Positions 2,689-64,000 of a stretch of 64,000 nucleotides of DNA are shown here, piece by piece (position 1 is the first letter of the stretch; every line of letters begins with the position of its first letter). The notes beneath the pieces are model-generated. The model made no database searches and was not told where the DNA came from. It was given only the letters and a program-made list of their open reading frames with translations. Location of the stretch: NCBI GenBank assembly GCA_965222955.1, contig OZ244974.1, positions 1,344,226 through 1,408,225 on the forward strand, given 5' to 3'. The translations under genes and the position numbers were made by a program. This DNA is from Hyphomicrobiales bacterium (GTDB lineage: Bacteria > Pseudomonadota > Alphaproteobacteria > Rhizobiales > CBDCVD01).

Positions 2689-2814
2689 TGTCTCATTTCA
2701 GTTGGTTGTTCTCAAGGCGACGGGTCTGAAGTCAGGGTTTTTACGGCCGTGGCGGGATGGGCGACCAGCAGCACCCGATAAGCTTTTTCGAGAACGCCCT
2801 ATTGAAATTGCGCA
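2689..2814 (+). repeat. MITE-like family B copy (ctcaagg/cgagaac subfamily)
   Basis: Arms tgtctcatttcagttggttgttctcaagg and cgagaacgccctattgaaattgcgca, with the shared core ggtctgaagtcagg...agcacccgat. Confidence 0.7.
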
Positions 2815-2848
2815 ACCAGCCTGTTCATATAACCCAAGGTACAGACCC

Positions 2849-3712
2849 ATGGCCCATGATAAACAGCACGTTCATTCCGATCTGATCGCCAGTTGCGATC
2901 CGGTATGGGATCGCCTGCGTACCGAGGCACAGGCCGCGGCGACGCGCGATCCGGCCATCGGCGGTTTTATGATGACGATGATCCTGGGGCATTCGTCCTT
3001 TGAAGACGCCCTGATGCATCGCCTGTGCGCCCGCCTTGAGAACGAGAGTATCGGCTATCGCATGTTATTGCAGGCGTTTGAGGAGGCCTTGCAAGTCGCG
3101 CAGACCTCGCAGACCTCGCAGGTCTCGCAGGTTTCGCAGATCGGTGCACACGCCCGTGTCGATATCGGTGCCGTTTTTGATCGCGATCCCGCTTGCAACC
3201 GCTTTATTGAACCGTTCTTGTACTTTAAGGGATATCAGGCGGTGCAGACCCATCGGTTCGCCCATGCGCTGTACAAGGCCGGCCGTATTGATCTGGCCTA
3301 TTATCTGCAAAGCCGCATTTCCCAGGAATATCAGGTCGATATTCACCCGGCAGTGCCCATCGGCCGGGGATTCTTTCTTGATCACGCCACCGGCGTGGTG
3401 GTGGGTGAGACGGCGGTGATTGCCGACAATGTCTCCGTTTTACAGGGCGTAACATTGGGGGGCACAGGTAAGGAAGAGGGCGACAGACATCCCAAAATCG
3501 GGCCTGGCGTGTTGATCGGCGCCGGCGCGAAAGTGCTGGGCAATATCGATGTGGGGCCGTGTTCGCGTATCGCCGCCGGATCGGTGGTGCTCAAGCCGGT
3601 GCCGCCAAAGACGACCGTCGCAGGGGTGCCGGCAAAAGTAATCGGTGAGGCGGGTTGCGCGGAGCCCTCGCGCACCATGAACCATATTATCGCCCATGTG
3701 CAGAATGCTTAA
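2849..3712 (+). CDS. cysE: Serine O-acetyltransferase
   Basis: SATase N-domain followed by hexapeptide repeats (GVVVGETAVIADNVSVLQGVTLGG, DRHPKIGPGVLIGAGAKVLGNI). Start trimmed to ATG 2849 because the upstream part of ORF 2702.. lies in repeat B. Confidence 0.85.
   Translation: MAHDKQHVHSDLIASCDPVWDRLRTEAQAAATRDPAIGGFMMTMILGHSSFEDALMHRLCARLENESIGYRMLLQAFEEALQVAQTSQTSQVSQVSQIGAHARVDIGAVFDRDPACNRFIEPFLYFKGYQAVQTHRFAHALYKAGRIDLAYYLQSRISQEYQVDIHPAVPIGRGFFLDHATGVVVGETAVIADNVSVLQGVTLGGTGKEEGDRHPKIGPGVLIGAGAKVLGNIDVGPCSRIAAGSVVLKPVPPKTTVAGVPAKVIGEAGCAEPSRTMNHIIAHVQNA
3092..3139 (+). repeat. In-frame 9-bp microsatellite (CAGNNNTCG, about 5 units) inside cysE
   Basis: caagtcgcg cagacctcg cagacctcg caggtctcg caggtttcg, encoding QVAQTSQTSQVSQVSQ. 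Confidence 0.9.
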
Positions 3713-3927
3713 GTGAGTACCTTCGACAGGCTGTTTTCAAAGAAAGCCACCGCATGCACATGGCCGCAAGAGGTGTGTTATCAGGGCAGCACACCAGCCG
3801 GCGTGCATATAAAGCCAATGCCGCAGGTATAACGTCAGATCTGCCGCCTTGAAAATCCGGCTGAAAGATCGCACTCAGGCGGATTGCGGCATGGCAAAAG
3901 ACGGCATCGCAAAAGAATGGGCATAGC

Positions 3928-4149
3928 GTGAAAAAAACAGAAATCGACAAGCTGGAGAAATATTTGCGCAAGGTCTTTCAGTGCAATGCCCTTGGCGTGC
4001 GGGCGCGACCGCAAAAAGACGATTCAGCGGAAGTCTATGTGGGAGAGGAGTTCATCGGCATCATCTTTCGCGACGACGATGATGATGATCTTTGTTATAA
4101 CTTCCAGATGGCTATTCTCGATTTCGATCTTGATGAGAATACCGACTGA
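3928..4149 (+). CDS. DUF3126-like small protein
   Basis: 73 aa, MKKTEIDKLEKYLRKVF...GVRARPQKDDSAEVYVGEEFIGIIFRDDDDDD, the pattern I associate with alphaproteobacterial DUF3126. Confidence 0.6.
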   Translation: MKKTEIDKLEKYLRKVFQCNALGVRARPQKDDSAEVYVGEEFIGIIFRDDDDDDLCYNFQMAILDFDLDENTD

Positions 4150-4170
4150 AGAGTGGCGCTCTAGAGCGCA

Positions 4171-4530
4171 TCAGATCAGGGGTTTGTGGTCCTGTATCTG
4201 GTCCTCGTTGGCAACAACACGCAGTCCTGTGCGCCCCAGACAGCGTCTGGCGCTTTTCATAAAGCGAATGGAGCGGGTTCCGCCGGGGCCGATCACATGC
4301 AGGCGGATACGGCAGCGCGGCGCTGTCTGGCGCCGCAGGCGGGCGGTGTAGATAAACAGAAACTCAAAAAAGTCCCGTGGTTGACTGAAATTTCCGGCCA
4401 GGCGGTAGCTCGGCGTATAGGTTTCGCGCCCAGGGCGGCGTGGCGCGCGAAACAACGATCGTGAAAGCGACGAACGCGCGGTTTTTTTGATCTTTGCCTG
4501 ATCGGGACTCCACACAACACGATACTCCAT
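4171..4530 (-). CDS. Hypothetical protein (very Arg-rich; weak call)
   Basis: This 119-aa ORF is the one I judged most gene-like in this gap. No family recognised and it could be a GC-driven ORF. Confidence 0.3.
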   Translation of the reverse strand: MEYRVVWSPDQAKIKKTARSSLSRSLFRAPRRPGRETYTPSYRLAGNFSQPRDFFEFLFIYTARLRRQTAPRCRIRLHVIGPGGTRSIRFMKSARRCLGRTGLRVVANEDQIQDHKPLI

Positions 4531-4569
4531 TTACGCAACAAAGCGGCGTCAAACGCCAATACCGCACCG

Positions 4570-7233: not shown

Positions 7234-7360
7234 TGTGTAATTTCAACAGGTTGTCCCTGGTAAATCTATCGGGTACGGGGGGCTCCCTGGGGGCAAGGGT
7301 GTTAAGAGGTATCACTTTCCGGTTTGCCTGTCCCGGGAACAAACTGCTGAAAGATCACAG
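7234..7360 (-). repeat. MITE-like family B copy
   Basis: Termini tgtgtaatttcaacaggttgtccctgg and cccgggaacaaactgctgaaagatcacag. Directly abuts A at 7361. Confidence 0.8.
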
Positions 7361-7639
7361 CTAGAGTGTGTCAGGTCTTAATAGAACCATTCTGACGGAG
7401 CGATTTTGCGACAAGATGAACCTTAAGTCTCGCAGGATATAGTGGGGCTATTTTCAAGAGACTTAAGGTTCATCTTGTCGCAAAAGCGCCCGTCCCTTCG
7501 GGTTTGTCGATTGGCGGACGCCCACACCCAAGCCGCTCTTGAGAGATGGGTCGCCATCGCTCTTCGAGCGCCTTGAGCGTGGTTCGCCTCGCCAATCGAG
7601 AAACAGAATTGCTTCTATTAAGACCTGACACGCTCTAGT
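7361..7639 (-). mobile_element. MITE family A, short form (279 bp)
   Basis: About 26-bp TIRs ctagagtgtgtcaggtcttaatagaa / ttctattaagacctgacacgctctag. Internal perfect 22-bp-stem hairpin at 7410-7479. Confidence 0.85.
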
Positions 7640-8245: not shown

Positions 8246-10657
8246 ATGCCGACATTTTCACGCAATCTCGAACACGCTTTGCACCAGGCGCTGGCCCATG
8301 CCAATGAGCGTTTGCAGGAATTCGCCACGTTGGAACATTTGTTGTTGGCGCTCATCGATGACAAGGATGCGGCGGCGGTAATGCGCGCCTGCAATGTCAA
8401 TCTTGATGATCTTCGCCAGGGCCTTGTGGACTATATCGATGACGAGCTCAGTTCGCTGGTTGTTGATGATTTTGAGGAATCGAAGCCGACGGCGGCCTTT
8501 CAGCGGGTTATCCAGCGCGCCGTCATCCATGTGCAGTCATCGGGCCGCGAGGAGGTAACGGGGGCGAGTGTCCTCGTGGCGATCTTTGCCGAGCGGGAGA
8601 GTCATGCGGCCTATTTCCTGCAACAGCAGGAAATGACCCGTTTTGATGCGGTGAATTATATCAGCCACGGCATCAGCAAGCGCGCCGGTGCGTCGCAGGC
8701 GCGCGCCATCCGCGGCGTTGATGACGATGCGACCCTGGAGGGAGAGGCAGCGGATCGCGAAAAGGGCAGGGCGCTGAAAGAGTTCTGTGTTGATCTGAAC
8801 GAAAAAGCGGCCGCTGGCAAAATCGACCCGCTCATCGGTCGCCTGCAGGAATTGAACAGAACAATACAGGTCCTTTGCCGCCGGCAAAAGAACAATCCGC
8901 TTTATGTTGGGGACCCCGGCGTGGGCAAAACGGCTATCGCGGAAGGGCTGGCCCATCGTATTGTGCACAAGGAGGTCCCGCCGGTGCTCGCCGATGCCAC
9001 GGTGTTTGCCCTTGATATGGGCGCCTTGCTGGCGGGCACGCGCTATCGCGGGGATTTCGAGGAGCGCTTGAAGGCAGTCGTGCGCGAGATCGAGAATCAC
9101 GCCAATGCCATCATGTTTATCGATGAAATTCATACGGTAATTGGTGCCGGCGCGACCTCGGGCGGGGCGATGGATGCCTCCAATCTGCTCAAGCCGGCGC
9201 TGGCGGCCGGCACGATTCGCTGCATCGGCTCGACGACATACAAGGAGTATCGGCAGTTCTTTGAGAAGGACCGGGCCTTGTTGCGCCGCTTTCAGAAGAT
9301 CGATATCGCCGAGCCGAGCCTGCAGGAGGCGATCGAAATTCTGCGCGGTCTGAAGCCCTATTATGAAGAGCACCACGGCGTTCGCTATACGGGCGGGGCG
9401 ATCAAATCCGCTGTCGAGCTTTCGGCGAAGCATATTCATGATCGAAAACTTCCCGACAAGGCCATCGATGTCATAGATGAGACCGGAGCATCGCTGCATC
9501 TGCTGCCGCCCTCGCGGCGCAAGAGAACCATCGGCGTTCGCGATGTGGAGACGACGGTGGCGACGATGGCGCGTATTCCGCAAAAGTCGATCTCGCGCAG
9601 CGACAGTGAAGTACTGAGCGGTCTTGCGGCCAATCTAAAGCGCGTTATCTACGGCCAGGACACCGCTCTTGAGGCTGTAGTGGCGGCCATCAAGCTGGCG
9701 CGTGCGGGCTTGCGCGAGCCGGAGAAGCCCATCGGTGCCTATCTTTTTTCCGGCCCCACGGGCGTCGGCAAGACGGAGGTCGCGCGCCAGCTTGCGAGCC
9801 ATCTCGGCGTGGAACTGCTGCGCTTTGATATGTCTGAATACATGGAACGGCATACGGTCTCGCGGTTGATCGGTGCGCCACCGGGCTATGTTGGTTTCGA
9901 TCAGGGCGGGTTGCTAACGGATGGGGTTGACCAGCATCCCCATTGTGTCGTCCTGCTCGATGAAATCGAAAAGGCACATCCGGATCTGTTCAATATTTTG
10001 CTGCAGGTGATGGATCACGGCAAGTTGACGGATCACAATGGCAAGCGGATTGATTTTCGCAACGTCATTTTGATCATGACAACCAACGCCGGTGCCGAAG
10101 ACCTGGCCAGGGCGCCCATCGGCTTTAATCGTGCGCGCCGCGAGGGGGATGACGAGGAAGCGATCACGCGCATGTTCTCGCCGGAGTTTCGCAATCGCCT
10201 CGATGCGATTATCGGTTTTTCCGGCTTGCCGCCCGAGATCGTGCGCAAGGTGGTGACCAAATTCGTCATGCAGCTTGAGGCGCAATTGGGGGATCGCGGC
10301 GTAACGTTTGAGTTAAGCGAAGCGGCCTGTGATTGGCTGGCGAAAAAGGGGTATGACGAAAAAATGGGCGCGCGGCCCCTGGCGCGGGTTATTCAGGAGC
10401 ATATCAAAAAGCCGCTTGCCGATGAGGTTTTGTTTGGCGATCTGAAAAAGGGTGGCACGGTTTTTGTCAGTGTCAGGAAAAAGGGCGGCAAGAGCCTTCT
10501 TCATCTGCGCGTGGTTGCTGACAAGCCTCTGTTGTCTTCGCGCGCCGGCAAAAGTCGCCCACCGGCCATTGAGGCCAGACCGGCGATGGCGGGTAAAAAG
10601 ACGGCGGGCAAAGAAAAAAAGGAAAATCGTGACGGGCGTACAAAATCCCGGATGTGA
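8246..10657 (+). CDS. clpA: ATP-dependent Clp protease ATP-binding subunit ClpA
   Basis: 803 aa. Clp N-domain and two AAA+ modules ([15 protein letters not shown]; [15 protein letters not shown]). Immediately downstream of clpS. Confidence 0.95.
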
Positions 10658-10788
10658 TCTTTCAACGGGTTGTTCCCGGGACAGGCAGATCTGAAGCGAT
10701 ACCTGGTGCGGCCGTTGCCGCAGATGATCAGGTAAATGGCTCCCTGTACCCGATGGGTTTATCAGGGACAACGTGCTGAAATTACACA
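10653..10788 (+). repeat. MITE-like family B copy overlapping the clpA stop codon
   Basis: Starts tgtgatctttcaacgggttgttcccggg and ends cagggacaacgtgctgaaattacaca. The clpA TGA (10655-10657) lies inside the terminus. Confidence 0.8.
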
Positions 10789-11293
10789 CCAAGAGGTGAT
10801 AACTGAAATTCGCCGCGCCGCCGCAAGAACCGGGCGCAAAAAGCGCCGTTGAACGCAGCAATATTATTGGCTTATACCAACGGCTCTTATGGTTGACTCA
10901 TAAAGCCGTTGGCAAGGCCGACTGGCCGCCGCGCCTTATGGCGCGTAAGCCTTAGTGGCGTTTGAACGATAACGGTCATTCTTTATGACCGTTAGTATTA
11001 GTTATCGATTGAGAAATAATTGTAAGATGTATTACAATATTATTGGCCTATTAATTGCGCTATATTAACATATATGCACAATTTTTAATAGAATATTTAT
11101 TCCATCACAATCCAGTCCAGCCCAACCTGTTAAGGGAGATTCCTGGTGATTCGTCACAGGGAGTCCGTGTTTACGGCTGGCAATCCTCAAAACAGGATCG
11201 CAGTCGGACAAAACTGTTTGAGGATCGGGCGGAAAAAGCACAGCTCTGCCCCGATCGGAATTTGTGTGGGGGGTATTTTGGATTTCAGGCGTA

Positions 11294-14200
11294 ATGTATT
11301 CCTTTGTTGGCAGACTGTATCTTCTTATAGTGATGGCTTTGGTGCCCGGTGCATTGTTTATGAACGCGGCTCCCGCCGTAGCTGCGAATGTGAGCTGCGG
11401 TGGGGCGAGCGTTGCCAGCCCAAGGCAAAATGATATTGTCTTCATTATTTTTGCAAACACCACTACTTACAAACCCAACGGCGATTACTATGAGTGTGAA
11501 ACCTCTGAGGTGGCGCATGGATCTGTTGATCCGAGAACGCAGACTTTGGCACACAGCGGCGTGCTCATGGTTATTCCTCAAGTTGGTTCCAGTGACGAGA
11601 ACATTTACTTCTCGTTTGCACCGAGTATGCCGGGCGATGGTCAGCCGATCCAGAGGGCCGGGTCATCGTGCAGTAGCGGCACCCTGGACTATTTCCCTGC
11701 TCACGGGCGACAGGATAGTGTGGTGGCGATTAACCTGCCGACAAACAGCAGATGCGATCTCACCATTACAGGCGTCCATGGGAGTGTCTTTACAGGCAAA
11801 CTGCGACGTGTGCGCGATGGATATTCACTCACGGTTATCCGGTTGATCGTTCCGGATCCGGATATGGTCGTTTCCGGTGCTGGCGTGGAGATCAGCAACG
11901 GCGATTCCACGCCGCAGGTAGCGGATAACACGGATTTCGGCTGGGTTGCAGTGGGCGCCACAAAGGAACACACCTTTGAGGTATCCAATAAAAATACCAA
12001 CGGCATGCTGATTTTGCCTATTGATCCTGGCAGCGGCTCGACGCGCGTTCAAATCAGCGACAGTACGAATTTTACCGTCAGCCGGGATTTGCAACCCGCA
12101 GGGCGCGGCAATATCACCCTGCCGTTCAGGATAACGTTCACACCGCGTAGCGCGGGTACCAAAACGGCGACTGTCACAATTCTCAGCAATGACCCCAATA
12201 AAAATCCTTATACCTTTGTCATTCAGGGAGGAAAAAGGACCCTGACGCCGGCAAGCATTGAGTTGGAGCCACAACGGCCCAAAGCAGGGGAGACCGGTGT
12301 CAGAGCGGTTATCAAGTTTAGCGGCCCTCTTACACCGTCACTTTCGGGTACGGCGGATATTACGATCTCCGGAACCGGTGTGGAGAACGGGCCCGTTAAC
12401 TGCCCGAGGGCGGCGAGTTCGAGTTCCCCGTCCGACTATACTTTCATATGTACATTTAACATAGGGGCGGCAGGACGCGATAATATCACCGTTACATTGA
12501 ACAGCTTATCCGATCCCAACTATCAGGGATCAGGCAGCGAGAGGTTCAGCGTCGACGCGGCGGATGCGAGCATTGTGTTCGAACCTGCCCTGAGTTCGGC
12601 GACGGTTGGCACGCCCACGACGATAACGGCGAAGGTGACGGCGCCGGGTGCGGGCAACACGGTACCCGGGAGCGTGACGTTTTCCGGCCTTCCCCCCGGG
12701 GCCAACTGTCCTGGTTCCATTGCGCTGACGCCAACGGCTACGGCCGATGAATTTATCGCCAGTTGCACCTTCACCCCGAGCCAGGCGGGGGTCTACACCA
12801 CCATCGGCGCGGCGTTCACCGCAAGCAGCACGAACTATAATGACGACAGTATCACCGGCCAGAGCCTTAGCGTCGACGCGGCGGATGCGAGCATTGTGTT
12901 CGAACCTGCCCTGAGTTCGGCGACGGTTGGCACGCCCACGACGATAACGGCGAAGGTGACGGCGCCGGGTGCGGGCAACACGGTACCCGGGAGCGTGACG
13001 TTTTCCGGCCTTCCCCCCGGGGCCAACTGTCCTGGTTCCATTGCGCTGACGCCAACGGCTACGGCCGATGAATTTATCGCCAGTTGCACCTTCACCCCGA
13101 GCCAGGCGGGGGTCTACACCACCATCGGCGCGGCGTTCACCGCAAGCAGCACGAACTATAATGACGACAGTATCACCGGCCAGAGCCTTAGCGTCGACGC
13201 GGCGGATGCGAGCATTGTGTTCGAACCTGCCCTGAGTTCGGCGACGGTTGGCACGCCCACGACGATAACGGCGAAGGTGACGGCGCCGGGTGCGGGCAAC
13301 ACGGTACCCGGGAGCGTGACGTTTTCCGGCCTTCCCCCCGGGGCCAACTGTCCTGGTTCCATTGCGCTGACGCCAACGGCTACGGCCGATGAATTTATCG
13401 CCAGTTGCACCTTCACCCCGAGCCAGGCGGGGGTCTACACCACCATCGGCGCGGCGTTCACCGCAAGCAGCACGAACTATAATGACGACAGTATCACCGG
13501 CCAGAGCCTTAGCGTCGATGGGGCGGATGCGAGCATTGTGTTCGAACCTGCCCTGAGTTCGGCGACGGTTGGCACGCCCACGACGATAACGGCGAAGGTG
13601 ACGGCGCCGGGTGCGGGCAACACGGTACCCGGGAGCGTGACGTTTTCCGGCCTTCCCCCCGGGGCCAACTGTCCTGGTTCCATTGCGCTGACGCCAACGG
13701 CTACGGCCGATGAATTTATCGCCAGTTGCACCTTCACCCCGAGCCAGGCGGGGGTCTACACCACCATCGGCGCGGCGTTCACCGCAAGCAGCACGAACTA
13801 TAATGACGACAGTATCACCGGCCAGAGCCTTACCGTCAACAGGGCGGCTGTGCGAGTGGTGACAACTATCGGCCTGGATCCAAGCGAGCCTGAGGTTGAT
13901 CGGCAGGTTACCATGCGCATAACGTTTTCGCGTCCTGCGGGTGTGCCGTTTTCAGGAACCTTCGATATCTCCCTTGCGGGAACCGGCTCGCCAGCCGCCG
14001 CAATCGGCGCCACGGACTGCAAGAGAACCGGCAATATCATTCCTCCACAAGGCGGGACATTTACCTGCACATTTACCCCGACGTCGCCGGGTGAACTGAA
14101 TTTGCAGGTGCTGAACCTGGCCGATCCGCGTTATACGTTTGCCCAAACCACTGTTTCGCTCAGGGTTACGGTTATACGCAATGTCGCCAGGCTGACCACG

Positions 14201-15301
14201 CAGATGGTGGTGGATTATCTGGGGGATCGGAACGCCATATTGCTTGCCAACGGGGTGAATATGAACAACCGCCTGAACCGTCTGAGCAAAGGCAGAGGCG
14301 GACAGATGGGGGGCAATATCAGCGTTAATCTGGGCCGGTCTGAAGATGCGACGGCGTCGGCGTTTTCCATGGATTTGCGTACCTTCCTGCCTGGCGATGT
14401 TAGTATTACCGGCGATACCATCACATTCGCCGCCAGCACGATACGCCTGATGCGTTCGGGGGCCTTCGGCGCCGATTCAGATGATCGTGATGTGGGGGAG
14501 TCTGTGCTCGAGGGAGGCGACGACCGCGGGGCCGTTAGCTCGGGGCCGCGTTGGGATGTCTGGATTGAAGGGCGTATTTCGCGCTTTGACAGCAGCAGCA
14601 ACGACGGCACACTCGGTGTTGTCTATCTTGGGGCGGACTATCTGATCACGCCGAGCATGCTCATCGGCCTGATGACCCAGTACGACTGGCTGAAGAAAGA
14701 TTACGACACCAACGGCCGCATCAAGGGGCAGGGCTGGATGGTCGGGCCCTACGCGGCGGCTCGTCTCGACGAGAGACTGTTTCTGGAGGTACAGGTGCGG
14801 GGCGGCCGCTCAAGCAACGATATCACGCCCATCGGCACTTATACGGACAGGTTCAAGACGACGCGCTGGTACGTCAGCGGCAGGTTAAACGGCGACTTCG
14901 ATTACGGCGACTGGACAATCCGTCCGGGCGTATCAGCGCAATATCTGGCCGAGAAACAAAAGGGGTATACGGACAGTCTGGGCAATTCCATAGCGGCGCG
15001 GACGATATCGCAGGGCGATATTCGCGTGGGTCCGCGCGTTGCATACACCTATGGCCTTGGCGATGGGGGTGCGATTATTCCCTGGGCGGAGTTCGAGGGG
15101 GTCTACACGTTTGGCAGCAAGGACAAGTTCAGCACGGGTGGTTATGCGTTCGATATTCACGGGTTATCGGGGAGTGTCGAGGCGGGTCTTGACTGGCGCA
15201 CGGCGACGGGGGCGGTGTTCTCGCTGTCGGGCTCCTACGATGGCATCGGCTCGGGCTCATCGAGCTATGGGGCGCGTGCGCGTGTCGATATTGCATTTTA
15301 G
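11294..15301 (+). CDS. Autotransporter outer-membrane protein with Ig-like repeat passenger
   Basis: Signal peptide (MYSFVGRLYLLIVMALVPGALFMNAAPAVAA), ASH/choice-of-anchor-like domain, four 107-aa repeats, C-terminal beta-barrel ending RARVDIAF. Start chosen at ATG 11294. Confidence 0.8.
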   Translation: MYSFVGRLYLLIVMALVPGALFMNAAPAVAANVSCGGASVASPRQNDIVFIIFANTTTYKPNGDYYECETSEVAHGSVDPRTQTLAHSGVLMVIPQVGSSDENIYFSFAPSMPGDGQPIQRAGSSCSSGTLDYFPAHGRQDSVVAINLPTNSRCDLTITGVHGSVFTGKLRRVRDGYSLTVIRLIVPDPDMVVSGAGVEISNGDSTPQVADNTDFGWVAVGATKEHTFEVSNKNTNGMLILPIDPGSGSTRVQISDSTNFTVSRDLQPAGRGNITLPFRITFTPRSAGTKTATVTILSNDPNKNPYTFVIQGGKRTLTPASIELEPQRPKAGETGVRAVIKFSGPLTPSLSGTADITISGTGVENGPVNCPRAASSSSPSDYTFICTFNIGAAGRDNITVTLNSLSDPNYQGSGSERFSVDAADASIVFEPALSSATVGTPTTITAKVTAPGAGNTVPGSVTFSGLPPGANCPGSIALTPTATADEFIASCTFTPSQAGVYTTIGAAFTASSTNYNDDSITGQSLSVDAADASIVFEPALSSATVGTPTTITAKVTAPGAGNTVPGSVTFSGLPPGANCPGSIALTPTATADEFIASCTFTPSQAGVYTTIGAAFTASSTNYNDDSITGQSLSVDAADASIVFEPALSSATVGTPTTITAKVTAPGAGNTVPGSVTFSGLPPGANCPGSIALTPTATADEFIASCTFTPSQAGVYTTIGAAFTASSTNYNDDSITGQSLSVDGADASIVFEPALSSATVGTPTTITAKVTAPGAGNTVPGSVTFSGLPPGANCPGSIALTPTATADEFIASCTFTPSQAGVYTTIGAAFTASSTNYNDDSITGQSLTVNRAAVRVVTTIGLDPSEPEVDRQVTMRITFSRPAGVPFSGTFDISLAGTGSPAAAIGATDCKRTGNIIPPQGGTFTCTFTPTSPGELNLQVLNLADPRYTFAQTTVSLRVTVIRNVARLTTQMVVDYLGDRNAILLANGVNMNNRLNRLSKGRGGQMGGNISVNLGRSEDATASAFSMDLRTFLPGDVSITGDTITFAASTIRLMRSGAFGADSDDRDVGESVLEGGDDRGAVSSGPRWDVWIEGRISRFDSSSNDGTLGVVYLGADYLITPSMLIGLMTQYDWLKKDYDTNGRIKGQGWMVGPYAAARLDERLFLEVQVRGGRSSNDITPIGTYTDRFKTTRWYVSGRLNGDFDYGDWTIRPGVSAQYLAEKQKGYTDSLGNSIAARTISQGDIRVGPRVAYTYGLGDGGAIIPWAEFEGVYTFGSKDKFSTGGYAFDIHGLSGSVEAGLDWRTATGAVFSLSGSYDGIGSGSSSYGARARVDIAF
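12551..13834 (+). repeat. Four tandem 321-bp (107-codon) repeats inside the autotransporter
   Basis: gtcgacgcggcggatgcgag recurs at 12551, 12872 and 13193, and as gtcgatggggcggatgcgag at 13514. Exact 321-bp period. Copies 1-3 look identical by eye. Confidence 0.95.
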
Positions 15302-15316
15302 AGCGTCGGGCGATTA

Positions 15317-15420
15317 ATACCAGCGGTATTGGCGTTTTGTACGCGCTGACGTGTGTATCGTGCTGATAGGACAACGGTTTTAATCTGCATCAGGAGTCAA
15401 ACGCAAAGCCCCCTGGTATA
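15317..15420 (+). mobile_element. MITE family C copy (about 101 bp) with TAA target duplication
   Basis: taccagcggtattggcg...cccctggta flanked by taa on both sides. Begins 16 nt after the autotransporter stop. Confidence 0.85.
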
Positions 15421-15458
15421 AGTTGCAACAATAACCCCGGTTCCGGATAAGAGAAAGA

Positions 15459-15514
15459 CCAGAGCGTGTCAGGTCTTAACAGAATTGATTCTATTAAGAC
15501 CTGACACGCTCTGG
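15459..15514. mobile_element. Family A 'solo TIR pair' (both TIRs, no internal sequence)
   Basis: ccagagcgtgtcaggtcttaacagaattgattctattaagacctgacacgctctgg. Confidence 0.8.
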
Positions 15515-15651
15515 TGCGGCCCTTGCCGCAGATGGCCGGCAGCACCCGATGAATTTACCAGGGACAGCCTGTTTAAATTATACCAGTTTAATCTTTCAAC
15601 AGGTTGCTCTCAAGGTGGCAGGTCTGAAGTCAGGGTAGTTGCAGTCCTCTT
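15515..15651. repeat. Family B, permuted (right half followed by left half)
   Basis: cttgccgcagatggccggcagcacccgatgaatttaccagggacagcctgtttaaatta, then aatctttcaacaggttgctctcaaggtggcaggtctgaagtcagg. Confidence 0.65.
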
Positions 15652-15754
15652 ATACCAGGGGGCTTTGCGTTTGACTCCTGACGCAGATTAAAACCGTTGT
15701 CCTATCAGCACGATACACAAGTCAGCGTGTACCAAAAGCCGATACCGCTGGTAT
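15652..15754 (-). mobile_element. MITE family C copy, inverted relative to 15317..15420, with TTA duplication
   Basis: taccagggggctttgcgtttgactcctgac...gataccgctggta flanked by tta on both sides. Confidence 0.85.
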
Positions 15755-16073
15755 TATTACGTTCAGGGGGCGATGCAAAGGCGAGATCCTCTGCACGGAC
15801 CGGTGCAAACAACATCCGGCCTCAATCACACGAGAGCGGGTAAAACCACACAAGAGCAATCACTGATGGAATCATGGCAGATATTTAGCACAACAGCCGA
15901 TTCCCGATTTTAACGTTATTGATATCCACAAGAGCCTGGAGCCCCGGCAAGTTTTTTGCCCTGTCCTGCATCCCAATTTTACGCGGGTTTCATCGTCCTT
16001 GCCACAGCAAGGAGATTGATAGCGCTGCCGGAATGGCGAAAGGCACTTTTCCAGCGGCGACGAATCAGCCACG

Positions 16074-16430
16074 TTAGAGCGTGTCAGGTCTTGATAGAAG
16101 CAATTTTCGTTTCTCAATTGGCGAGGCGATATCCACGCTCAAGGCGATCGAAGAGCGATGGCGACCCATCTCTCGAGAGCGGCCTGGGTGCGGGCGTCCG
16201 CCAATCGGCAAACCCGAAGGGACGGGCGATTTTGCTATGGATTTCAGGGCGATCAGCTTTATGGCGTTAGCATTACCCTTGGCAAAACGGGTACAGCTAA
16301 CGCCAGGCTGATCCAATATGAACCTTAAGTCTCTTGGAAACAGCCCCACTATATCCTGCGAGACTTAAGGTTCATCTTGTCGCAAAATCGCTCCGTCAGA
16401 ATGGCTCTATCAAGACCTGACACGCTCCAG
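16074..16430 (+). mobile_element. MITE family A, long form (357 bp, carries sub-element G)
   Basis: TIRs ttagagcgtgtcaggtcttgatagaa / ctatcaagacctgacacgctccag. Internal G segment atttcagggcgatcagctttatggcgttagc...gctaacgccaggctgatc. Confidence 0.85.
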
Positions 16431-16530
16431 GGTCGGTGATGTGCGATGGGCGTGATGCATAAGATTTTAACACACGCATCCGCCACAAGTGCATTAGTCA
16501 TCGAATCTGACACCGAATCCGGTGGCAAAC

Positions 16531-16546
16531 CTACTATATTTAGTAT
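16531..16546 (+). promoter_or_regulatory. Candidate NrdR box upstream of nrdJ
   Basis: ctactatatttagtat resembles the NrdR palindrome acaCtATATaTAGtgt. I could not find a convincing second box. Confidence 0.3.
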
Positions 16547-16911
16547 ATGTTAATCTTTGCTCCGCCATATGTTGATTATGTGCTTTGGTACATGGTTGTC
16601 AACGGTGGCGACGGGCGTATCGTCGTGATGGGCTGTCGGGATGTATGGCGCTTGCAGATACGTGGCTGACCGCAATCGGCGCGCGTCGCAAAGTGGACAT
16701 TGCATTGCCAGGCATCGCGGGTTGTTCGAGTCACCAGATGTTTGCCGTTGCGACGGGGGTTTGGGGGTTAGTAAAACCGGTTTGTGGCGATTGATCGCCT
16801 GGGAATCCACCTGGGCCTGTGCTGGCGCCTGACACTGTGTTGGCGCCCGTATGTGAGCCAACAAACGAGACTTAACAAACGAGACTTGCAAGACTTAAAA
16901 GAGGACAAACC

Positions 16912-20692: not shown

Positions 20693-20693
20693 A

Positions 20694-21356: not shown

Positions 21357-21359
21357 TAG

Positions 21360-34591: not shown

Positions 34592-34596
34592 CCACG

Positions 34597-45473: not shown

Positions 45474-45500
45474 TAGACACCTGAACGTTGAGGGCCTGGT

Positions 45501-47011: not shown

Positions 47012-47127
47012 TGCGCAATTTTAGTGGAGGTGTGTTCTCAAGAAAAGCCATCGGGTGGGATTGAACGGCCCGGCACGAACTTGCTGCACCATGGGTTTAC
47101 CAGGGACAACCTTTTGAAATTACACAG
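47012..47127 (+). repeat. Family B copy (short)
   Basis: tgcgcaattttagtggaggtgtgttctcaag ... ccagggacaaccttttgaaattacacag. Abuts A at 47128. Confidence 0.65.
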
Positions 47128-47404
47128 CTAGAGCGTGTCAGGTCTTAATAGAATCAATTCTGTTTCCCGATTGGCGAGGCGAACCACGCCCAAGGCGATC
47201 GAAGAGCGATGGCGACCCATCTCTCGAGAGCGGCCTGGGCGTGGGCGTCCGCCAATCGGAAACCCGAAGGGACGGGCGCTTTTGCACCAACATGAACCTT
47301 AAGTTTCTTGAAAATAGCGCCACTATATCGTGCGAGACTTAAGGTTCATCTTGTCGCAAAATCGCTCCGTCAGAATGCTTCTATTAAGACCTGACACGCT
47401 CTAG
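47128..47404 (+). mobile_element. MITE family A, short form (277 bp)
   Basis: ctagagcgtgtcaggtcttaatagaatc ... gcttctattaagacctgacacgctctag. Inverted relative to the copy at 47890. Confidence 0.9.
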
Positions 47405-47474
47405 GGACTGATTTGTCCTTATTTTATTGGGAAAAATAGACCGAGGCGAAGCCGAGGGACTTTTTCCATTCAAC
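47405..47474 (-). repeat. Family D/E, D-end copy facing the NDUFS4-like gene
   Basis: ggactgatttgtccttattttattgggaaaaatagaccgaggcgaagccgagggactttttccattcaac. Confidence 0.8.
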
Positions 47475-47498
47475 AAAATCAGACGCAGGAAAGGTGCA

Positions 47499-47816: not shown

Positions 47817-47889
47817 GTTGAATGTAAAAAAGTCCGTCGGCTTCGCCTCGGTCTGCTTTTTCCCGATGAACACAAGAACAAATCAGTCC
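47817..47889 (+). repeat. Family D/E, D-end of a full element that continues at 48245 after the A insertion
   Basis: gttgaatgtaaaaaagtccgtcggcttcgcctcggtctgctttttcccgatgaacacaagaacaaatcagtcc. Starts 3 nt after the stop codon. Confidence 0.8.
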
Positions 47890-48244
47890 CTAGAGCGTGT
47901 CAGGTCTTAATAGAACCATTCTGACGGAGCGATTTTACTATAGATTTCAGGGCGATCAGCTTTATGCGTTTCGCATTACCCTTGGCAAAATGGGTACAGC
48001 TAACGCCAAGCTGATCTAATATGAACCTTAAGTCTCGCAGGATATAGTGGGGCTATTTTCAAGAGACTTAAGGTCCATATTGGTGCAAAAGCGCCCGTCC
48101 CTTCGGGTTCCCGATTGGCGGACGCCCACGCCCAAGCCGCTCTTGAGAGATGGGTCGCCATCGCTCTTCGATCGCTTTGAGCCTGGGTATCGCCTCGCCA
48201 ATCGAGAAACAGAATTGCTTCTATTAAGACCTGACACGCTCCAG
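47890..48244 (-). mobile_element. MITE family A, long form (355 bp, with G), inserted in the D/E element
   Basis: ctagagcgtgtcaggtcttaatagaaccattctgacgg ... gcttctattaagacctgacacgctccag. Confidence 0.9.
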
Positions 48245-48459
48245 GGCGGCCCGGCGGACAGGTTTGGCATCCATGCTGATCAATCATGACCGTTGGTCAT
48301 GATTGGAAATGGCAAGGTATTGCCCACAAATGCGCCAAAACCTTGCAATAAAGCGAGGAGGAAACAAAGCGCCGCGCCTTCTTGAACTTTGTTTTCTCAT
48401 TGTTTCAGATGAAGAAAAGTACACGGAGTGTAGCGAAGCATTTTTCTTCACGATCAACT
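48245..48459 (+). repeat. Family D/E, middle and E-end (H-I-E part), ends 6 nt before tRNA-Arg
   Basis: ggcggcccggcggacagg...atcatgaccgttggtcatgat...gttttctcattgtttcagatgaagaaaagtacacgg...tttttcttcacgatcaact. Confidence 0.75.
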
Positions 48460-48465: not shown

Positions 48466-48542
<77 letters not shown>

Positions 48543-48674: not shown

Positions 48675-48864
48675 TGACACGCTCCAGGAACCGCCCAAAG
48701 GTGCGCCGATCCATGATCTGGAATTCACTCTGGGGGGCCGACAAACCGTACAACGCCTGCAGCACCAGCACCTTGAACATCATGACGCTGTCAAATGGTG
48801 GTCTGCCGCCCTGAGGGCCGGATTTATAATCGAGGGCGGCATTCAGACTGTCGCGAAATATCTT
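48675..48864 (-). pseudogene. IS5-family transposase fragment (second part of the N-terminal DUF772-like domain), 3'-truncated
   Basis: Hand translation gives IFRDSLNAALDYKSGPQGGRPPFDSVMMFKVLVLQALYGLSAPQSEFQIMDRRTFGRFL. Homology stops at a 14-nt family A TIR tip (tgacacgctccagg, 48675-48688). Confidence 0.7.
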
Positions 48865-49015
48865 GTTGAATGCGAAAAAGTCCCTTGGTTTGGCCTCGGT
48901 CTACTTTTTCCCAATAAAATAAGGACAAATCAGTCCCTGGGGCGTTCCGGCGGACTGATTTGGCATTCATATTGACCGATCATGATCAATGGCCATGATC
49001 GGAAATTGCAAGGCT
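48865..49015 (+). repeat. Family D/E element, D-end plus H part (left portion of the copy inserted in the transposase gene)
   Basis: gttgaatgcgaaaaagtcccttggtttggcctcggtctactttttcccaataaaataaggacaaatcagtccctgg ggcgttccggcggactgattt...ccgatcatgatcaatggccatgatcgg. Confidence 0.8.
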
Positions 49016-49519
49016 ATACCAGCGGTATTGGCGTTTTGTACGCGCTGACTTGTGTGTCGTGCTGATAAGACAACGGTTGTAAACCAGTTCAGGAGTCAAA
49101 CGTAAGTCCCTTGTATACCAGCGGTATTGGCGTTTTGTACGCGCTGACTTGTGTGTCGTGCTGATAAGACAACGGTTGTAAACCAGTTCAGGAGTCAAAC
49201 GTAAGTCCCTTGTATACCAGCGGTATTGGCGTTTTGTACGCGCTGACTTGTGTGTCGTGCTGATAAGACAACGGTTGTAAACCAGTTCAGGAGTCAAACG
49301 TAAGTCCCTTGTATACCAGCGGTATTGGCGTTTTGTACGCGCTGACTTGTGTGTCGTGCTGATAAGACAACGGTAGTAAACCAGTTCAGGAGTCAAACGC
49401 AAAGCCTCTTGGTATTATACCAGCGGTATTGGCGTTTTGTACACTCTGACTTGTGTGTCGTGCTGATAAGACAATGGTTGTAAATCAGGTCAGGAGTCAA
49501 ACGCAAAGCCCCTTGGTAT
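49016..49519 (+). repeat. Tandem array of 5 family C units (three 99-bp junctions, one full-length junction with TTA)
   Basis: ataccagcgg starts at 49016, 49115, 49214, 49313 and 49417. The array sits inside the D/E element. Confidence 0.95.
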
Positions 49520-49657
49520 TATGCACAAATGCGCCAAAACCTTGCAATACGCCCAGGCGAAAACAAAGCGCCGCGCCTACTTGAGCGTTGTTTTCTCATT
49601 GCTTCAAATGAAGAAAAGTACACGAAGAGGAGCGAAGCACCTTTCTTCACGATCAAC
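49520..49657 (+). repeat. Family D/E element, I-E part (right portion of the same copy)
   Basis: tgcacaaatgcgccaaaaccttgcaata...gttttctcattgcttcaaatgaagaaaagtacacgaag...cacctttcttcacgatcaac. Confidence 0.8.
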
Positions 49658-49792
49658 TATCTCGAAGTCAACCACGCGCAGCAACGGCTCCAGCGGATCG
49701 CTTGTGTCGCTCAAGCGCCGATACCGATCATCAGGATCAAAAAAATCCCCGCTGAGCAGGCATTGAACCCTCCGAAGCTCTTTCCAATTCAA
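49658..49792 (-). pseudogene. IS5-family transposase fragment (N-terminus)
   Basis: MNWKELRRVQCLLSGDFFDPDDRYRRLSDTSDPLEPLLRVVDFE from ORF 49604..49792. Its continuation lies in the E-end repeat. Confidence 0.65.
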
Positions 49793-50003
49793 ATCACCAA
49801 CGGTGGATCATAAATCAACAAAAATGATCAGATTTATCAGAGCGTCCAGCCGGGAACCGCCAAGTCCTGCAGCTTGTGTCCGTTGTCGGGCCAAAAGGGT
49901 GCTGCGGCACGCTCGAACGGGAACGGGCAGCCGCCGTCTGGCTACACCGATGCTGCATATCTGCGCTGTGCGGTTTTTTGCATCCGCATAGCTGGCAACG
50001 GAA

Positions 50004-50994: not shown

Positions 50995-51034
50995 CTCCGT
51001 CAGAATGGTTCTATTGAGACCTGACACGCTCTAG
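50995..51034 (+). mobile_element. Family A right-end remnant (40 nt) containing the ppx stop codon
   Basis: ctccgtcagaatggttctattgagacctgacacgctctag. The ppx TAG is the complement of 51031-51033. Confidence 0.7.
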
Positions 51035-56387: not shown

Positions 56388-56504
56388 TGTGATCTTTCAG
56401 CAGGTTGTTCCCGGGACAGGCAGGTCCGAAGGTACATCTCTTGCGCCCTTGCCGCCAGCAGCACCCGATGGGTTTATCAGGGATAACCTGTTCAAAGACT
56501 ACAT
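56388..56504 (+). repeat. Family B copy, preceded by a 15-nt A-TIR remnant (56373-56387)
   Basis: gtgacatgctctaac | tgtgatctttcagcaggttgttcccgggacagg...cagggataacctgttcaaagactacat. Confidence 0.8.
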
Positions 56505-56778
56505 CTAGAGCGTGTCAGGTCTTAATAGAATCAATTCTGTTTCTCGATTGGCGAGGTGACCCACGTTTGAGCCGATCGACATGCGATGCGGGCGCATCTC
56601 ATGAGATCGGTTTGAGCGTGGGCACCCGCCAATCCGAAACCCGAAGGGACGGGCGATTTTGCACCAATGCCGGCGCAAAGTCTCTTGAAAATAGTCCACT
56701 ATGTCCTGCGAAACTTTGCTTGGCCTTGTCACAAAATCGCTCCGTCAGAATGGTTCTATTAAGACCTGACACGCTCTA
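56505..56778 (+). mobile_element. MITE family A, short form (274 bp)
   Basis: ctagagcgtgtcaggtcttaatagaatc ... ggttctattaagacctgacacgctctaa. Confidence 0.9.
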
Positions 56779-56920
56779 ACAGATGATGACAAAACCTGCC
56801 ATTCACCAGTAGATGACACGCTCTATATCAATATTCACTTAAAATACAATCGTTTGCGGGCCACGGGGCAAGGGGTGTACGATCTTGCGCCAGGGCGTCC
56901 CAACGGCCGGCGGCGGTGGA

Positions 56921-59001: not shown

Positions 59002-59064
59002 AGTTGATCGCGAAGAGAGGTGCTTCGCTCCGCTCCATGTACTTTTCTTCATTTAAAACAATGA
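59002..59064 (-). repeat. Family D/E, E-end fragment in reverse orientation (host of the next element)
   Basis: agttgatcgcgaagagaggtgcttcgctccgctccatgtacttttcttcatttaaaacaatgag. Confidence 0.7.
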
Positions 59065-59290
59065 GTTGAATGTGAAAAAGTCCCTCGGCTTCGCCTCGGT
59101 CCACTTTTTCCCAATAAATAAGGACAAATCAGTCCCTGGGGCGGCCCGGCGGACTGATTTGGCATTCATATTGACCGATCATGACCAATGGCCATGATCG
59201 GAAATCGCAAGGTTCTACACGCAAATACGCCAAAACCTTGCAATAAGCCCAGGCGAAGACAAAGCGCAGCACCTTTCTTCACGATCAAAC
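59065..59290 (+). repeat. Family D/E element, nearly complete (internal deletion in the E part), flanked by acaatga(g)
   Basis: gttgaatgtgaaaaagtccctcggcttcgcctcggtcc...aaatcagtccctgg ggcggcccggcggactgattt...ccttgcaataagcc...cacctttcttcacgatcaa. Confidence 0.75.
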
Positions 59291-59305
59291 AATGAGAAAA
59301 CTGAG

Positions 59306-59387
59306 ACCAAGAAGATGCGGCCCCTTGCCACAGATGGCCACCAGCACCCGATGGGTTTACCAGGGACAATCTGTTGAAAGATCACAT
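59306..59387 (+). repeat. Family B right half, ending at the rpmF stop
   Basis: gatgcggccccttgccacagatggccaccagcacccgatgggtttaccagggacaatctgttgaaagatcacat, then ctag. Confidence 0.75.
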
Positions 59388-61583: not shown

Positions 61584-61703
61584 TGCAATCTTTCAACAGG
61601 TTGTTCCTGAGACAGGCAAACCTGAAGGGACGTCTCTAGTAGTCAGATGAATGGCCAACAGCACCCGATGGGTTTTTCGAGAACAACCTGTTGAAATTAC
61701 TCA
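61584..61703 (+). repeat. Family B copy (cgagaac subfamily, keeps an F right tip)
   Basis: tgcaatctttcaacaggttgttcctgagacagg...tcagatgaatggccaacagcacccgatgggtttttcgagaacaacctgttgaaattactca. Starts 1 nt after the ispA stop. Confidence 0.8.
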
Positions 61704-62545: not shown

Positions 62546-62594
62546 TCATGGCGCCGGGATTGTGTCGGCAGGGTGCCCACGGGCAGGAGCAACG

Positions 62595-63047
62595 ATGAGT
62601 ATAAGAATATGCGCCGCAGTGTGGCTGTGTGTAAGCGTGCTGTTGGCGTTTGCCGGTGCCCAGGCGTGGGCAAATCAGGCGCGGGAACTGAATATCATCC
62701 GCCCGCACGCCTTTGCCAGTGTGCCTGGCGCCAAAGTCGCCAGCGTCTATATGGAAATCATCAACACCGGCGATAGCGCGTATCGATTGACCGGTGCCGC
62801 TGCCACCTTCGCCGGCCGGGTTGAAATCCATAACATGACGGTGAAAAACAACGTGATGCGCATGCGCAAACTCGCCGGTGGCATTGAAATTGCGCCTCGC
62901 GGGCGTATTGTGTTGTCCGGGAGGGGTATGCATATCATGTTCATGGAGCTGCGCCGGCCGCTCGTCGTTGGCGAGACGCTGCCGCTGACGCTGCTGTTTG
63001 AAAAAGCCGATCCGATCCAGGTGGAACTGGCCATTGTGCCCCGTTGA
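62595..63047 (+). CDS. Copper chaperone PCu(A)C (DUF461)
   Basis: Signal peptide and a His/Met copper motif region (VEIHNMTVKNNVMRMRKL...GMHIMFMEL). Sits upstream of SCO1. Confidence 0.85.
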   Translation: MSIRICAAVWLCVSVLLAFAGAQAWANQARELNIIRPHAFASVPGAKVASVYMEIINTGDSAYRLTGAAATFAGRVEIHNMTVKNNVMRMRKLAGGIEIAPRGRIVLSGRGMHIMFMELRRPLVVGETLPLTLLFEKADPIQVELAIVPR

Positions 63048-63084
63048 GACACCGATTGCCGCCGCCAGCGAGAAGGGCTGAAAG

Positions 63085-63684
63085 GTGTTAGGATACGTTC
63101 GTGTTGGCCTTTGGGCACTTATTGGCGTAATCGGCGTTTTCGCTATCGGGCGGTATATGCTTGATCACTCCCTGGACGACGCACCATCCGCTTCGGTGGT
63201 CTTTGGTGCGCCCTTTCAACTTGTCGATCAGAACGGTGCGGCGATTACCCACGACGCGTTTGCCGGCCGGCCTGTGGCGCTGTTCTTTGGCTTTACCCAT
63301 TGTCCCAACATCTGTCCGACGACATTGTTTGAACTATCGGCCTGGCTTTCCGAACTGGGCGAAGAGGGGGAGCGGATCGGCGCTTTCTTTGTTACCCTCG
63401 ATCCGGCGCGCGATACGCCGGAGGTGATGAAGAGTTATGTCAGTGCCTTTTCCAGGCGCATTGTGGGCATTACCGGGGAGGCGACAAGGATTGCGGCGCT
63501 GGCCAAAGCATGGCGGGTGTTTGTCAGGAAGGTCCCCCTTGAGGGCAATGATTATACGATCGACCACACCGCATCGGTGTTTCTTGTGCGTCCCGACGGC
63601 ACCTTGCAGGGTACGATCGGCTATGGTGAAGGGACTGCCGTGGCGATAAGGAAACTGAAGAACCTCGCTCGCCAGCCGCTATAG
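63085..63684 (+). CDS. SCO1/SenC family copper-binding protein
   Basis: N-terminal TM segment and a thioredoxin fold with FGFTHCPNICPTTL (CxxxC) and DHTASVFLVRPDG. Confidence 0.9.
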   Translation: MLGYVRVGLWALIGVIGVFAIGRYMLDHSLDDAPSASVVFGAPFQLVDQNGAAITHDAFAGRPVALFFGFTHCPNICPTTLFELSAWLSELGEEGERIGAFFVTLDPARDTPEVMKSYVSAFSRRIVGITGEATRIAALAKAWRVFVRKVPLEGNDYTIDHTASVFLVRPDGTLQGTIGYGEGTAVAIRKLKNLARQPL

Positions 63685-63702
63685 TGCGTTGTATTTGGCT
63701 AT

Positions 63703-63778
63703 ATATTTCAGGGCGATCAGCTTTATGCGTTTCGCTTTGCGCCTGGCAAGACGGGTAAAGCGAAACACATGCTCCAGA
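63703..63778. repeat. Sub-element G, stand-alone copy
   Basis: tatatatttcagggcgatcagctttatgcgtttcgctttgcgcctggcaagacgggtaaagcgaaac. The same module is embedded in long-form A copies. Confidence 0.65.
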
Positions 63779-64000
63779 TGTGCAATTTCAACAGGTTGTC
63801 CCTGGTAAAACCATCGGTTGCCGTTGGCCATTCATCTGATCATTGGAGGTGTTCGATTTCTCCCGCGCTGTCAAGGGTTTAAGAACCGCTGAAAGCGCCG
63901 CGAAGCGCCCTTGACAGCGCGGGAGAGATCGAACACCTCCAATGATCAGATGAATGACCCGAACCGGCCTTCCTGGCGGCAATGGCCGCAAGTACCCTGA
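63779..64000 (-). repeat. Family B copy with nested F palindrome (63828..63957), running off the window
   Basis: tgtgcaatttcaacaggttgtccctggtaaaacc..[ccattcatctgatcattgg...ccaatgatcagatgaatga]..cccgaaccggccttcctggcggcaatggccgcaag. Confidence 0.8.

Follow-up and report, generated by a model that had tools for sequence, protein, structure and literature searches.

What occupies the spaces between the genes of this locus, and how did so many short repeats come to lie there, often one inside another? The window, by which we mean the whole 64-kb stretch analyzed (contig OZ244974.1 of a Hyphomicrobiales bacterium, positions 1,344,226 to 1,408,225), was described in the original prediction as a housekeeping region carrying mobile families that resemble MITEs (miniature transposable elements with inverted repeats). 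That description holds: terminal inverted repeats (TIRs) delimit A, B, C, and D, while A, C, and D are flanked by target duplications, and empty sites exist for C and D. The presence of densely packed, nested MITEs was confirmed. We consider it likely that the window contains several non-autonomous MITE families together with the palindromic passenger modules F and G, and that transposases encoded elsewhere in the genome move these families. In such a scheme, A, and probably B, would be mobilized in trans by a transposase of the IS1182 family of insertion sequences (ISs) that targets YTAR/CTAG and duplicates TA; D would move by another mechanism, one that duplicates about 5 bp, and C and D would depend on other enzymes.

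A repeat library for families A, B, C, D/E, F, and G, six in all, assigned 8,583 bp, or 13.4% of the window, to repeats arranged in 22 clusters, which is close to the earlier hand tally of about 9.8 kb (~15%). The contributions of the families were as follows.

Family A: 3,081 bp annotated, 16 loci
Family B: 1,421 bp annotated, about 17 loci
Family C: 1,869 bp annotated, 8 loci with 19 units
Family D/E: 1,186 bp annotated, about 10 loci
Family F: 634 bp annotated, 6 copies
Family G: 392 bp annotated, 5 copies

These copy counts agree with those first proposed, and the termini occur far above chance. By a crude codon-usage gene map made for this analysis, repeats account for 8,422 of ~19,400 non-coding bases (43%). 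Self-BLASTN restricted to the window marked 10,505 bp (16.4%) as repeated, of which ~1.3 kb is a coding repeat of an autotransporter gene and not a MITE. Of the 35 gaps that span 50 bp or more, 21 contain repeats, as do ~17 of the 23 that span 200 bp or more, and the first annotated copy begins at 7234; the earlier wording that they fill nearly every gap, starting at 2689, was therefore overstated, and "most large gaps" is accurate. Units of all six families measure 48–357 bp, under the ~600 bp taken as the upper size for a bacterial MITE, and contain open frames of only 57–91 codons that differ between copies, one of which had no match in a protein database of 5.8 billion sequences.

For comparison, we used throughout a circular 3,496,944-bp contig of a Hyphomicrobiales metagenome-assembled genome at 95x coverage (OZ245032.1, hereafter the sister genome). 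It represents a different species, as NrdJ is 78% identical at the protein level and shared genes are ~76–77% identical at the DNA level. Most of the sister loci, labeled L0xx, were drawn from a reference-genome scan with the family A terminus, which located this terminus at at least 24 loci between 0.1 and 3.46 Mb of OZ245032.1; all matches listed came from this contig.

Family A defines the system most clearly. Its terminus has 27 matches in the window at up to 3 mismatches (0 expected). The element is 275–280 bp long (~277 bp), reads 5'-GAGCGTGTCAGG...CCTGACACGCTC-3', and has inverted termini of 26 bp, with A-type ends beginning GAGCGTGTC, and two long internal hairpins (fold z-score -18.7). 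A long form of ~355 bp (up to 357 bp) carries the 85-bp hairpin G in one arm, and mini-A forms of 56 and 62 bp consist of the two termini only. Inferring the target of each copy from the base outside each flanking dinucleotide, we assigned the 23 complete A copies of both genomes to CTAG (15 copies), CTAA/TTAG (7), and TTAA (1). Every CTAA-target copy has CTA plus the element's G on its left side and the element's C plus TAA on its right; the A copy at 30250–30604, inside a CTAA of family F, is a clean case. A 2-bp TA duplication around an element with G...C termini is the sole fit to these flanks, and a 4-bp CTAG duplication was ruled out by six CTAA-target copies whose left border reads CTAG and whose right border reads CTAA. 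Thus, A duplicates TA and inserts at YTAR, mostly at CTAG.

The ends of family B share A's form, G-N-TGTGAT...ATCACA-N-C, and are flanked by TA or TG. The B terminus has 15 matches over 24 nt and 24 over its 17-nt core (0–0.04 expected). Copies are 116–157 bp long, or 265 bp when carrying F, with termini of ~30 bp (TGTGATCTTTCAGCAGGTTGTTCC...), and B-type ends begin GNTGTGAT. Family D is 225–285 bp long and has 17-bp termini GTTGAWYGTGAARAAG (GTTGAATGTGAAAAAG / CTTCACGATCAAC) and three internal hairpins (z-score -6.0); one copy has a TATCT duplication, for which an empty site is available, and another has CAATGA. What had been named E is a 62-bp right-hand segment of D that is missing from the short D form.

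Family C, a ~103-bp element with imperfect inverted termini of ~20–30 bp starting TACCAG, is flanked by TTA/TAA and is found both as single copies and as tandem arrays (6.7, 5.0, and 2.1 units; period 99–104 bp). Units within an array are 97–100% identical, compared with 85–89% between arrays and 74–93% among dispersed copies. Because units within arrays are nearly identical, the arrays are recent local duplications and not serial transpositions, and we propose that they were amplified by slippage or unequal recombination. A 63-bp repeat at 3768–3830 is related to half of C; it occurs once in the window and 36 times in 192 kb of sister sequence.

The remaining units are palindromic. F is a near-perfect palindrome of 130–140 bp (fold z-score -12.9), and G is a hairpin palindromic over its whole length (z-score -4.5) that looks like a module shared by recombination. 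J is probably a two-copy palindrome at 21638–21689 and 45698–45750. In the sister genome, a G-like hairpin lies within a ~165-bp element, CTATAGCAAAA...TTTTGCTATAG plus hairpin, at three places of one locus (L025 9077–9224, 19199–19377, and 23312–23527); this element ends ...GCTGATC-TA-G, with A- or B-like ends directly after. These sister elements show that families have modules in common.

Families insert into one another even more deeply than the three levels first proposed, reaching three to four: G within A within D (47817–48458), five C units within D within an IS5 relic (48675–49850), and a truncated B holding F, A, and G in succession (30221–30667). F inside B was found three times. 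The clusters in the window are listed below, with the strand where it was assigned.

7234–7638: B (7234–7359), a single TA, and A (7361–7638, 278 bp); junction ...GATCACAGC-TA-GAGTGTG
10651–10788: B; its terminal TGTGATC gives clpA its TGA stop (10655–10657)
15313–15756: C (15313–15424); 56-bp mini-A of two TIRs (15459–15514) in a B remnant (to 15584); B-like left end from 15587; C (15649–15756)
16074–16430, minus strand: long A of 357 bp with G at 16229–16313
20643–22076: D left terminus (20643–20693), its first G being the last base of the nrdJ TAG stop; C array (20694–21356), 6.7 x 99 bp; B (21361–21625) containing F (21440–21580); A (21699–21974); B (21976–22076)
24239–24688: 62-bp mini-A (24239–24300), whose flanking CTAG holds the stop of a 749-aa open reading frame (ORF); partial B with F (24301–24522); partial A (24524–24688)
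25920–26076: B of 157 bp with TG on both sides, its TGTGATC forming the TGA stop of the BenE-family gene; then an A-type remnant, GAGCGTG
29479–30667: A TIR fragment (29479–29513); A (29514–29790); partial F (29806–29884); C x 2.1 (29893–30108); truncated B/F (30221–30667), F's CTAA being split by a long A (30250–30604) with G (30401–30488), four levels
31126–31179, minus strand: D terminal fragment abutting the 3' end of an NDUFA12-like gene
32374–32500: 20-bp D terminus right before the ate ATG; C (32394–32500) flanked by TTA
34391–34591: B (34391–34534); A-type fragment (34536–34591); the sister genome has aroQ at this place
35384–35935: C (35384–35481); long A (35482–35825) with G (35622–35707); B (35827–35935)
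44072–44530: D split by A (44142–44421); junction ...TTCAAC-TA-GAGCG
45371–45750: C (45371–45476); B with partial F (45501–45685); palindrome, probably J (45698–45750)
47083–47489: B right end (47083–47126), TA, A (47128–47404), TA, inverted D fragment (47405–47489)
47817–48458, plus strand: D split by a long A (47890–48244) with G (47932–48021), three levels; ends 7 bp before tRNA-Arg (48466–48542)
48865–49657, plus strand: D of ~285 bp holding a 5-unit C array (49015–49522); TATCT duplication; inside an IS5 transposase relic
50995–51034, minus strand: A terminal fragment filling a ~45–60-bp gap between two genes; the downstream minus-strand gene has its TAG stop within the flanking CTAG
56388–56779: B (56388–56503), TA, A (56505–56779); a diverged B-like copy follows from 56921
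59003–59386: inverted D right-end fragment (59003–59064); short D (59065–59289) inserted in the fragment, with CAATGA duplication; B right end (59337–59386)
61584–61703: B of 120 bp; 12-nt remnant of an F terminus
63693–64000: G-like unit outside any A (63693–63773); B (63779–64000) with F (63826–63961), running past the window end

Comparison of orthologous gaps, which the original prediction had pointed to as informative, revealed presence and absence of individual elements. The D element with its C array (48865–49657) splits a frameshifted N-terminal relic of an IS5-family transposase gene (48675–48863 and 49658–49850, minus strand), and the homologous relic in the sister genome (L014 3097–3479), 83–90% identical, is uninterrupted; TATCT is duplicated in the window. 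This relic is bounded by an A-type end in both genomes. Window positions 35154–30703 are syntenic with sister positions 4291–8862 of L025. Within this block, the gap between accC and ate is 13 bp in the sister and 145 bp in the window, and C, with TTA flanks, and a 20-bp D terminus are absent from the sister gap. Nesting provides further such pairs, since D, B, F, and A each occur with and without an inserted element. The same block differs in gene content: aroQ, encoding a type II dehydroquinase, stands between a DsbA-like gene and accB in the sister (L025 4827–5306) and is missing from that position in the window (34369–34596), where an A fragment and B are found instead.

Synteny with the sister genome ends at both flanks of nrdJ (15302–16911 and 20644–22094), exactly at repeat clusters, and also at 29468–30658. 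The NDUFA12-like gene and nrdJ are adjacent in the sister and not in the window. An inversion between the long A copies at 16074 and 30250 was considered as the origin of the nrdJ rearrangement and rejected, as the two copies are in direct orientation.

Why the elements pile up is suggested by their target. CTAG is scarce in the window, with 24 occurrences compared with 441 for GATC and 142 for TTAA; of these 24, 16 are within or next to repeats, 14 fall on element borders, and 1 is inside a gene. A, B, and D share a first base, G, and a last base, C. Neighboring elements are joined by one dinucleotide that they share: B-TA-A junctions occur at 7359/7361, 47126/47128, and 56503/56505, with a B-TA-A fragment at 34534/34536, an A-TA-B junction at 21974/21976, CA in place of TA at 35825/35827, and a D-TA-A junction at 44141/44142. 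A TA-duplicating insertion of a G...C element would leave C-TA-N and N-TA-G at its borders and so rebuild YTAR sites, and new insertions would then land beside or inside older elements. We infer that this regeneration of the target at element ends, combined with the scarcity of CTAG, causes the clustering.

The same target would account for the position of the elements relative to genes. In ~12 cases, an element begins between -5 and +24 bp from a gene 3' end, and stop codons overlap element ends at clpA, benE, nrdJ, the 749-aa ORF (CTAG at 24239), and the gene ending at 51031. A stop codon in the context Y-TAA or Y-TAG is itself a YTAR site, and after insertion TA plus the element's G would again read TAG, leaving the protein unchanged, as is observed at the 749-aa ORF and at the gene ending at 51031. 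The 3'-end placement thus follows from the overlap of YTAR with stop codons, and the expected outcome would be clusters pressed onto gene 3' ends.

A candidate enzyme for A is encoded in both genomes. The sister genome contains a ~1.48-kb IS in four 99%-identical copies, whose 448-aa transposase scores 322.8 bits against NF033551 (NCBIfam IS1182; cut-off 270) and has the Pfam domains DDE_Tnp_1, DUF772, and DDE_Tnp_1_6. A filled and empty pair (L021 and L024) shows insertion of the IS exactly at a CTAG adjoining an A end, with CTAG left on both sides, and all four copies are located on a CTAG at the end of an A copy. The usual IS terminus, CAGTGTGTCGG, resembles that of A, and the left end of the copy in L007, GAGCGTGTCGG, equals A's first nine bases. 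A 53%-identical IS1182 element on a Komagataeibacter europaeus plasmid (NZ_CP021468.1, 113160–114625; L028) carries the terminus CAGCCTGTCGGG and is bordered by CTAG at either end; because it behaves in the same manner, the CTAG behavior is a property of this IS1182 subgroup. The window's own genome encodes a transposase 88% identical to the sister IS enzyme, in at least two full-length variants. These similarities in sequence and target suggest that an IS1182-family transposase, or a close relative, mobilizes A, and B is probably moved by a related enzyme.

Three further observations concern transposase genes and their surroundings. The Komagataeibacter element (termini CAGCCTGTCGGGTTGGG) is followed by AGCATGTCAAC, which resembles the A terminus, a context that hints that such elements prefer landing beside ends like their own. 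In the sister genome, an IS200/IS605-family Y1 transposase gene (L019 2960–3513, 148 aa) with a long perfect hairpin upstream is inserted in the end of an IS1182 copy. In the window, 41179–42365 is an IS4-family relic, part of which is 90% identical to sister locus L009; it contains a 269-aa DDE transposase ORF (41289–42098, minus strand) below the family cut-off and candidate 26-bp inverted repeats at 41179–41204 and 42340–42365. This relic (41.2–42.4 kb) was rejected as a MITE partner, its candidate termini being unrelated to any family.

Several points weigh against mobilization of these families by such transposases. Since the four IS copies were fished out through the A terminus, their adjacency to A is partly a matter of ascertainment. 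The common IS terminus matches A at only 14 of 21 positions and is offset by one base. As to full-length autonomous elements with the MITE termini, which the original prediction suggested looking for, the sister genome has the IS1182-family element with an A-like terminus, no IS copy in the sister loci has exactly A's terminus, and no autonomous partner for B, C, D, F, or G was found in the window and sister loci. The flanks of B are degenerate, so that a TA or TG duplication is clear in only a few copies. No flanking duplications were found for F and G among the copies in the window and sister loci, and the MITE label is less secure for these two palindromes. Finally, dispersed copies are old (74–94% identical), and current activity in the window's genome is unproven.

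The age and distribution of the repeats bear on the same question. Dispersed A copies in the window are 81–94% identical (mean 86%) and form at least two subfamilies, dispersed C copies are 74–93% identical, and only tandem C units are nearly identical; the recent or ongoing bursts first proposed are therefore unsupported in the window. A copies in the sister genome are 89–100% identical to one another, and these closer copies, together with IS copies at least 99% identical, indicate more recent activity there. Between the genomes, A copies reach 95% identity, and window copies are as close to sister copies as to one another. As this is far above the similarity of housekeeping genes, it suggests that family A spread horizontally between species. 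Termini of B, C, and D are much rarer in the sister loci than in the window, and the sister has abundant units that resemble B, C (63-bp), and G in diverged form; multi-copy repeats make up ~5% of a 23.7-kb sister region chosen only for nrdJ.

Relatives of A extend further. By BLASTN against a plasmid collection, ~73%-identical A-like elements were found in three plasmids of Phyllobacterium sp. 628 and in Aminobacter niigataensis. The copies in L026 (1474–1750, Phyllobacterium) and L027 (1501–1777, Aminobacter) are both 277 bp long, intergenic, and bordered as CTAGAGC...GCTCTAG; their inner termini differ from those of A and their internal hairpins are the same. The gene tables, which list protein-coding genes only, have no feature over these elements. 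In the same collection, which includes Sinorhizobium replicons, B, C, D, F, and G had no repeat match, only tRNA and IS5 fragments being hit. The A and B termini had no match in JGI metagenomes, and the A terminus had none in viral contigs.

Other explanations of the repeats were weighed against these data. One is that they are structured functional sequences (terminators, RNA stabilizers, small RNAs, or protein-binding sites) kept by selection and spread by recombination. The folds are indeed very stable, particularly in A and D (z-scores -18.7 and -6.0), the elements lie tight against gene 3' ends, and a 14-sequence A alignment showed the same three-helix architecture in the Phyllobacterium and Aminobacter elements, with 38 of 106 pairs changed on both sides. 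However, the inverted termini of any transposon covary because the same enzyme binds both ends, and the 3'-end placement follows from YTAR overlapping stop codons. Only the two tRNAs in the window reach the Rfam gathering threshold and no repeat family does, while permissive scans of two repeat clusters returned chance hairpin matches only. Presence and absence in orthologous gaps, flanking duplications, and nesting in either orientation also argue against a mainly functional origin, which we regard as very unlikely. The conserved A hairpins might nevertheless matter for transposition or have a secondary role.

A second possibility, to which we give an equally small chance, is that the repeats are palindromes of the repetitive extragenic palindrome (REP), bacterial interspersed mosaic element (BIME), or IS200/IS605 type, moved as single-stranded hairpins by a Y1 or REP-associated tyrosine transposase (RAYT). 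This would suit the near-perfect palindrome F and the hairpin G, both found without a flanking duplication, and the sister genome does encode a Y1 transposase with a long hairpin upstream. That protein, however, scores 39.9 bits against the RAYT cut-off of 80 and is an IS200/IS605 TnpA; its gene is not flanked by any of these families, and the window has no Y1 gene. A, C, and D have duplications of 2–5 bp, and A, B, C, and D have inverted termini of 17–30 bp, neither of which Y1 elements have, and units of 100–360 bp contrast with the imperfect REP palindromes of 20–40 bp that occur in inverted pairs, so that this explanation applies to F and G at most. Assembly or scaffolding artifacts deserve mention because the genome was assembled from an uncultured organism and repeats are a classic cause of misassembly, but they can be all but dismissed: the copies are diverged (74–94%), lie in unique flanks, and are short enough to fit within long reads; the independent circular 95x contig of 3.5 Mb from another species again contains A together with C-like, G-like, and B-like units; and finished plasmids from cultured bacteria likewise carry A-like relatives. 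Non-autonomous MITEs moved by transposases encoded elsewhere remain the explanation that we favor.

The genes around the repeats are ordinary. The window has a G+C content of ~57% and encodes alphaproteobacterial housekeeping proteins, including an MsbA-like ABC exporter, ClpS/ClpA, B12-dependent NrdJ, a BenE-family transporter, AccB/AccC, RNase E, Ppk1, AspRS, and LexA. By the crude gene map, ~30% of the whole window is non-coding, and ~20% still is when repeats are left aside; this share is high for a free-living bacterium, and gene decay may be a cause. Between 40500 and 50000, G+C falls to 47–55%, and this region has few long ORFs, two tRNAs, and two IS relics; the ORFs at 42368–43625 had no Pfam match. 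It looks like decayed or acquired DNA. In an autotransporter-like gene (ORF 11264–15301), a 321-bp (107-aa) unit is repeated 4.0 times in tandem and in frame at 12548–13837 with 99% identity; this coding repeat has no relation to the MITE families.

These results offer an example of how target choice alone can pack elements into islands and onto stop codons while leaving genes undamaged, the ingredients being a rare CTAG, G...C termini, and a TA duplication, which together regenerate the target. They also suggest that non-autonomous elements, or the ISs moving them, may cross species boundaries. For genome structure, repeats have replaced aroQ at its usual place, and breaks of synteny coincide with repeat clusters; for annotation, ~13% of the region would otherwise be unexplained intergenic DNA or spurious ORFs. 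A broader view, which we hold only tentatively, is that a MITE load of at least 10% extends through the entire 3.39-Mb genome and, less markedly, through the sister, and that it reinforces itself through the recreation of CTAG, which the genome otherwise lacks, with elements exchanged horizontally as non-autonomous DNA. If true, this load would rank with the highest recorded in bacteria.

How do these families compare with known systems? IS5 prefers YTAR targets, and the duplication usually quoted for it is 4 bp, compared with the 2-bp TA duplication of A. As in MITEs derived from IS5/IS1182 elements, A is short and non-coding, has 26-bp termini related to those of an IS1182-family element, combines a CTAG/YTAR target with a TA-containing duplication, and resides in a genome that encodes the transposase; it differs in that its termini are not identical to the common IS terminus and its interior is unlike the IS. 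Correia elements of Neisseria and RUP of Streptococcus pneumoniae are intergenic elements of ~100–150 bp with inverted termini, a TA duplication, and stable hairpins, present in many copies often near genes; Correia elements occupy ~2% of the genome. The repeats in the window have no sequence relationship to either, comprise at least six mutually nested families, and reach a local density of 13%, several times that figure. Rhizobium-specific intergenic mosaic elements (RIMEs) are palindrome-rich mosaics of modules, and the window repeats are likewise palindrome-rich intergenic mosaics in Rhizobiales. In an indirect comparison, the window families had no match in Sinorhizobium replicons, and relatives were seen for A alone, in Phyllobacterium and Aminobacter. 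A literature search with four terminal sequences returned no relevant paper, and as far as these searches show, the families have not been named before. A MITE with an internal minisatellite has been described in Porphyromonas gingivalis (PMC4596501); it similarly joins a MITE to tandem repeats, as do the 99-bp C arrays inside D; there a shorter motif is repeated within one element, whereas here the whole of C is the unit and the arrays lie inside D. Taken together, the repeats are a known kind of element represented by new families, and they stand out for their density, nesting, placement on stop codons, and sharing between species.

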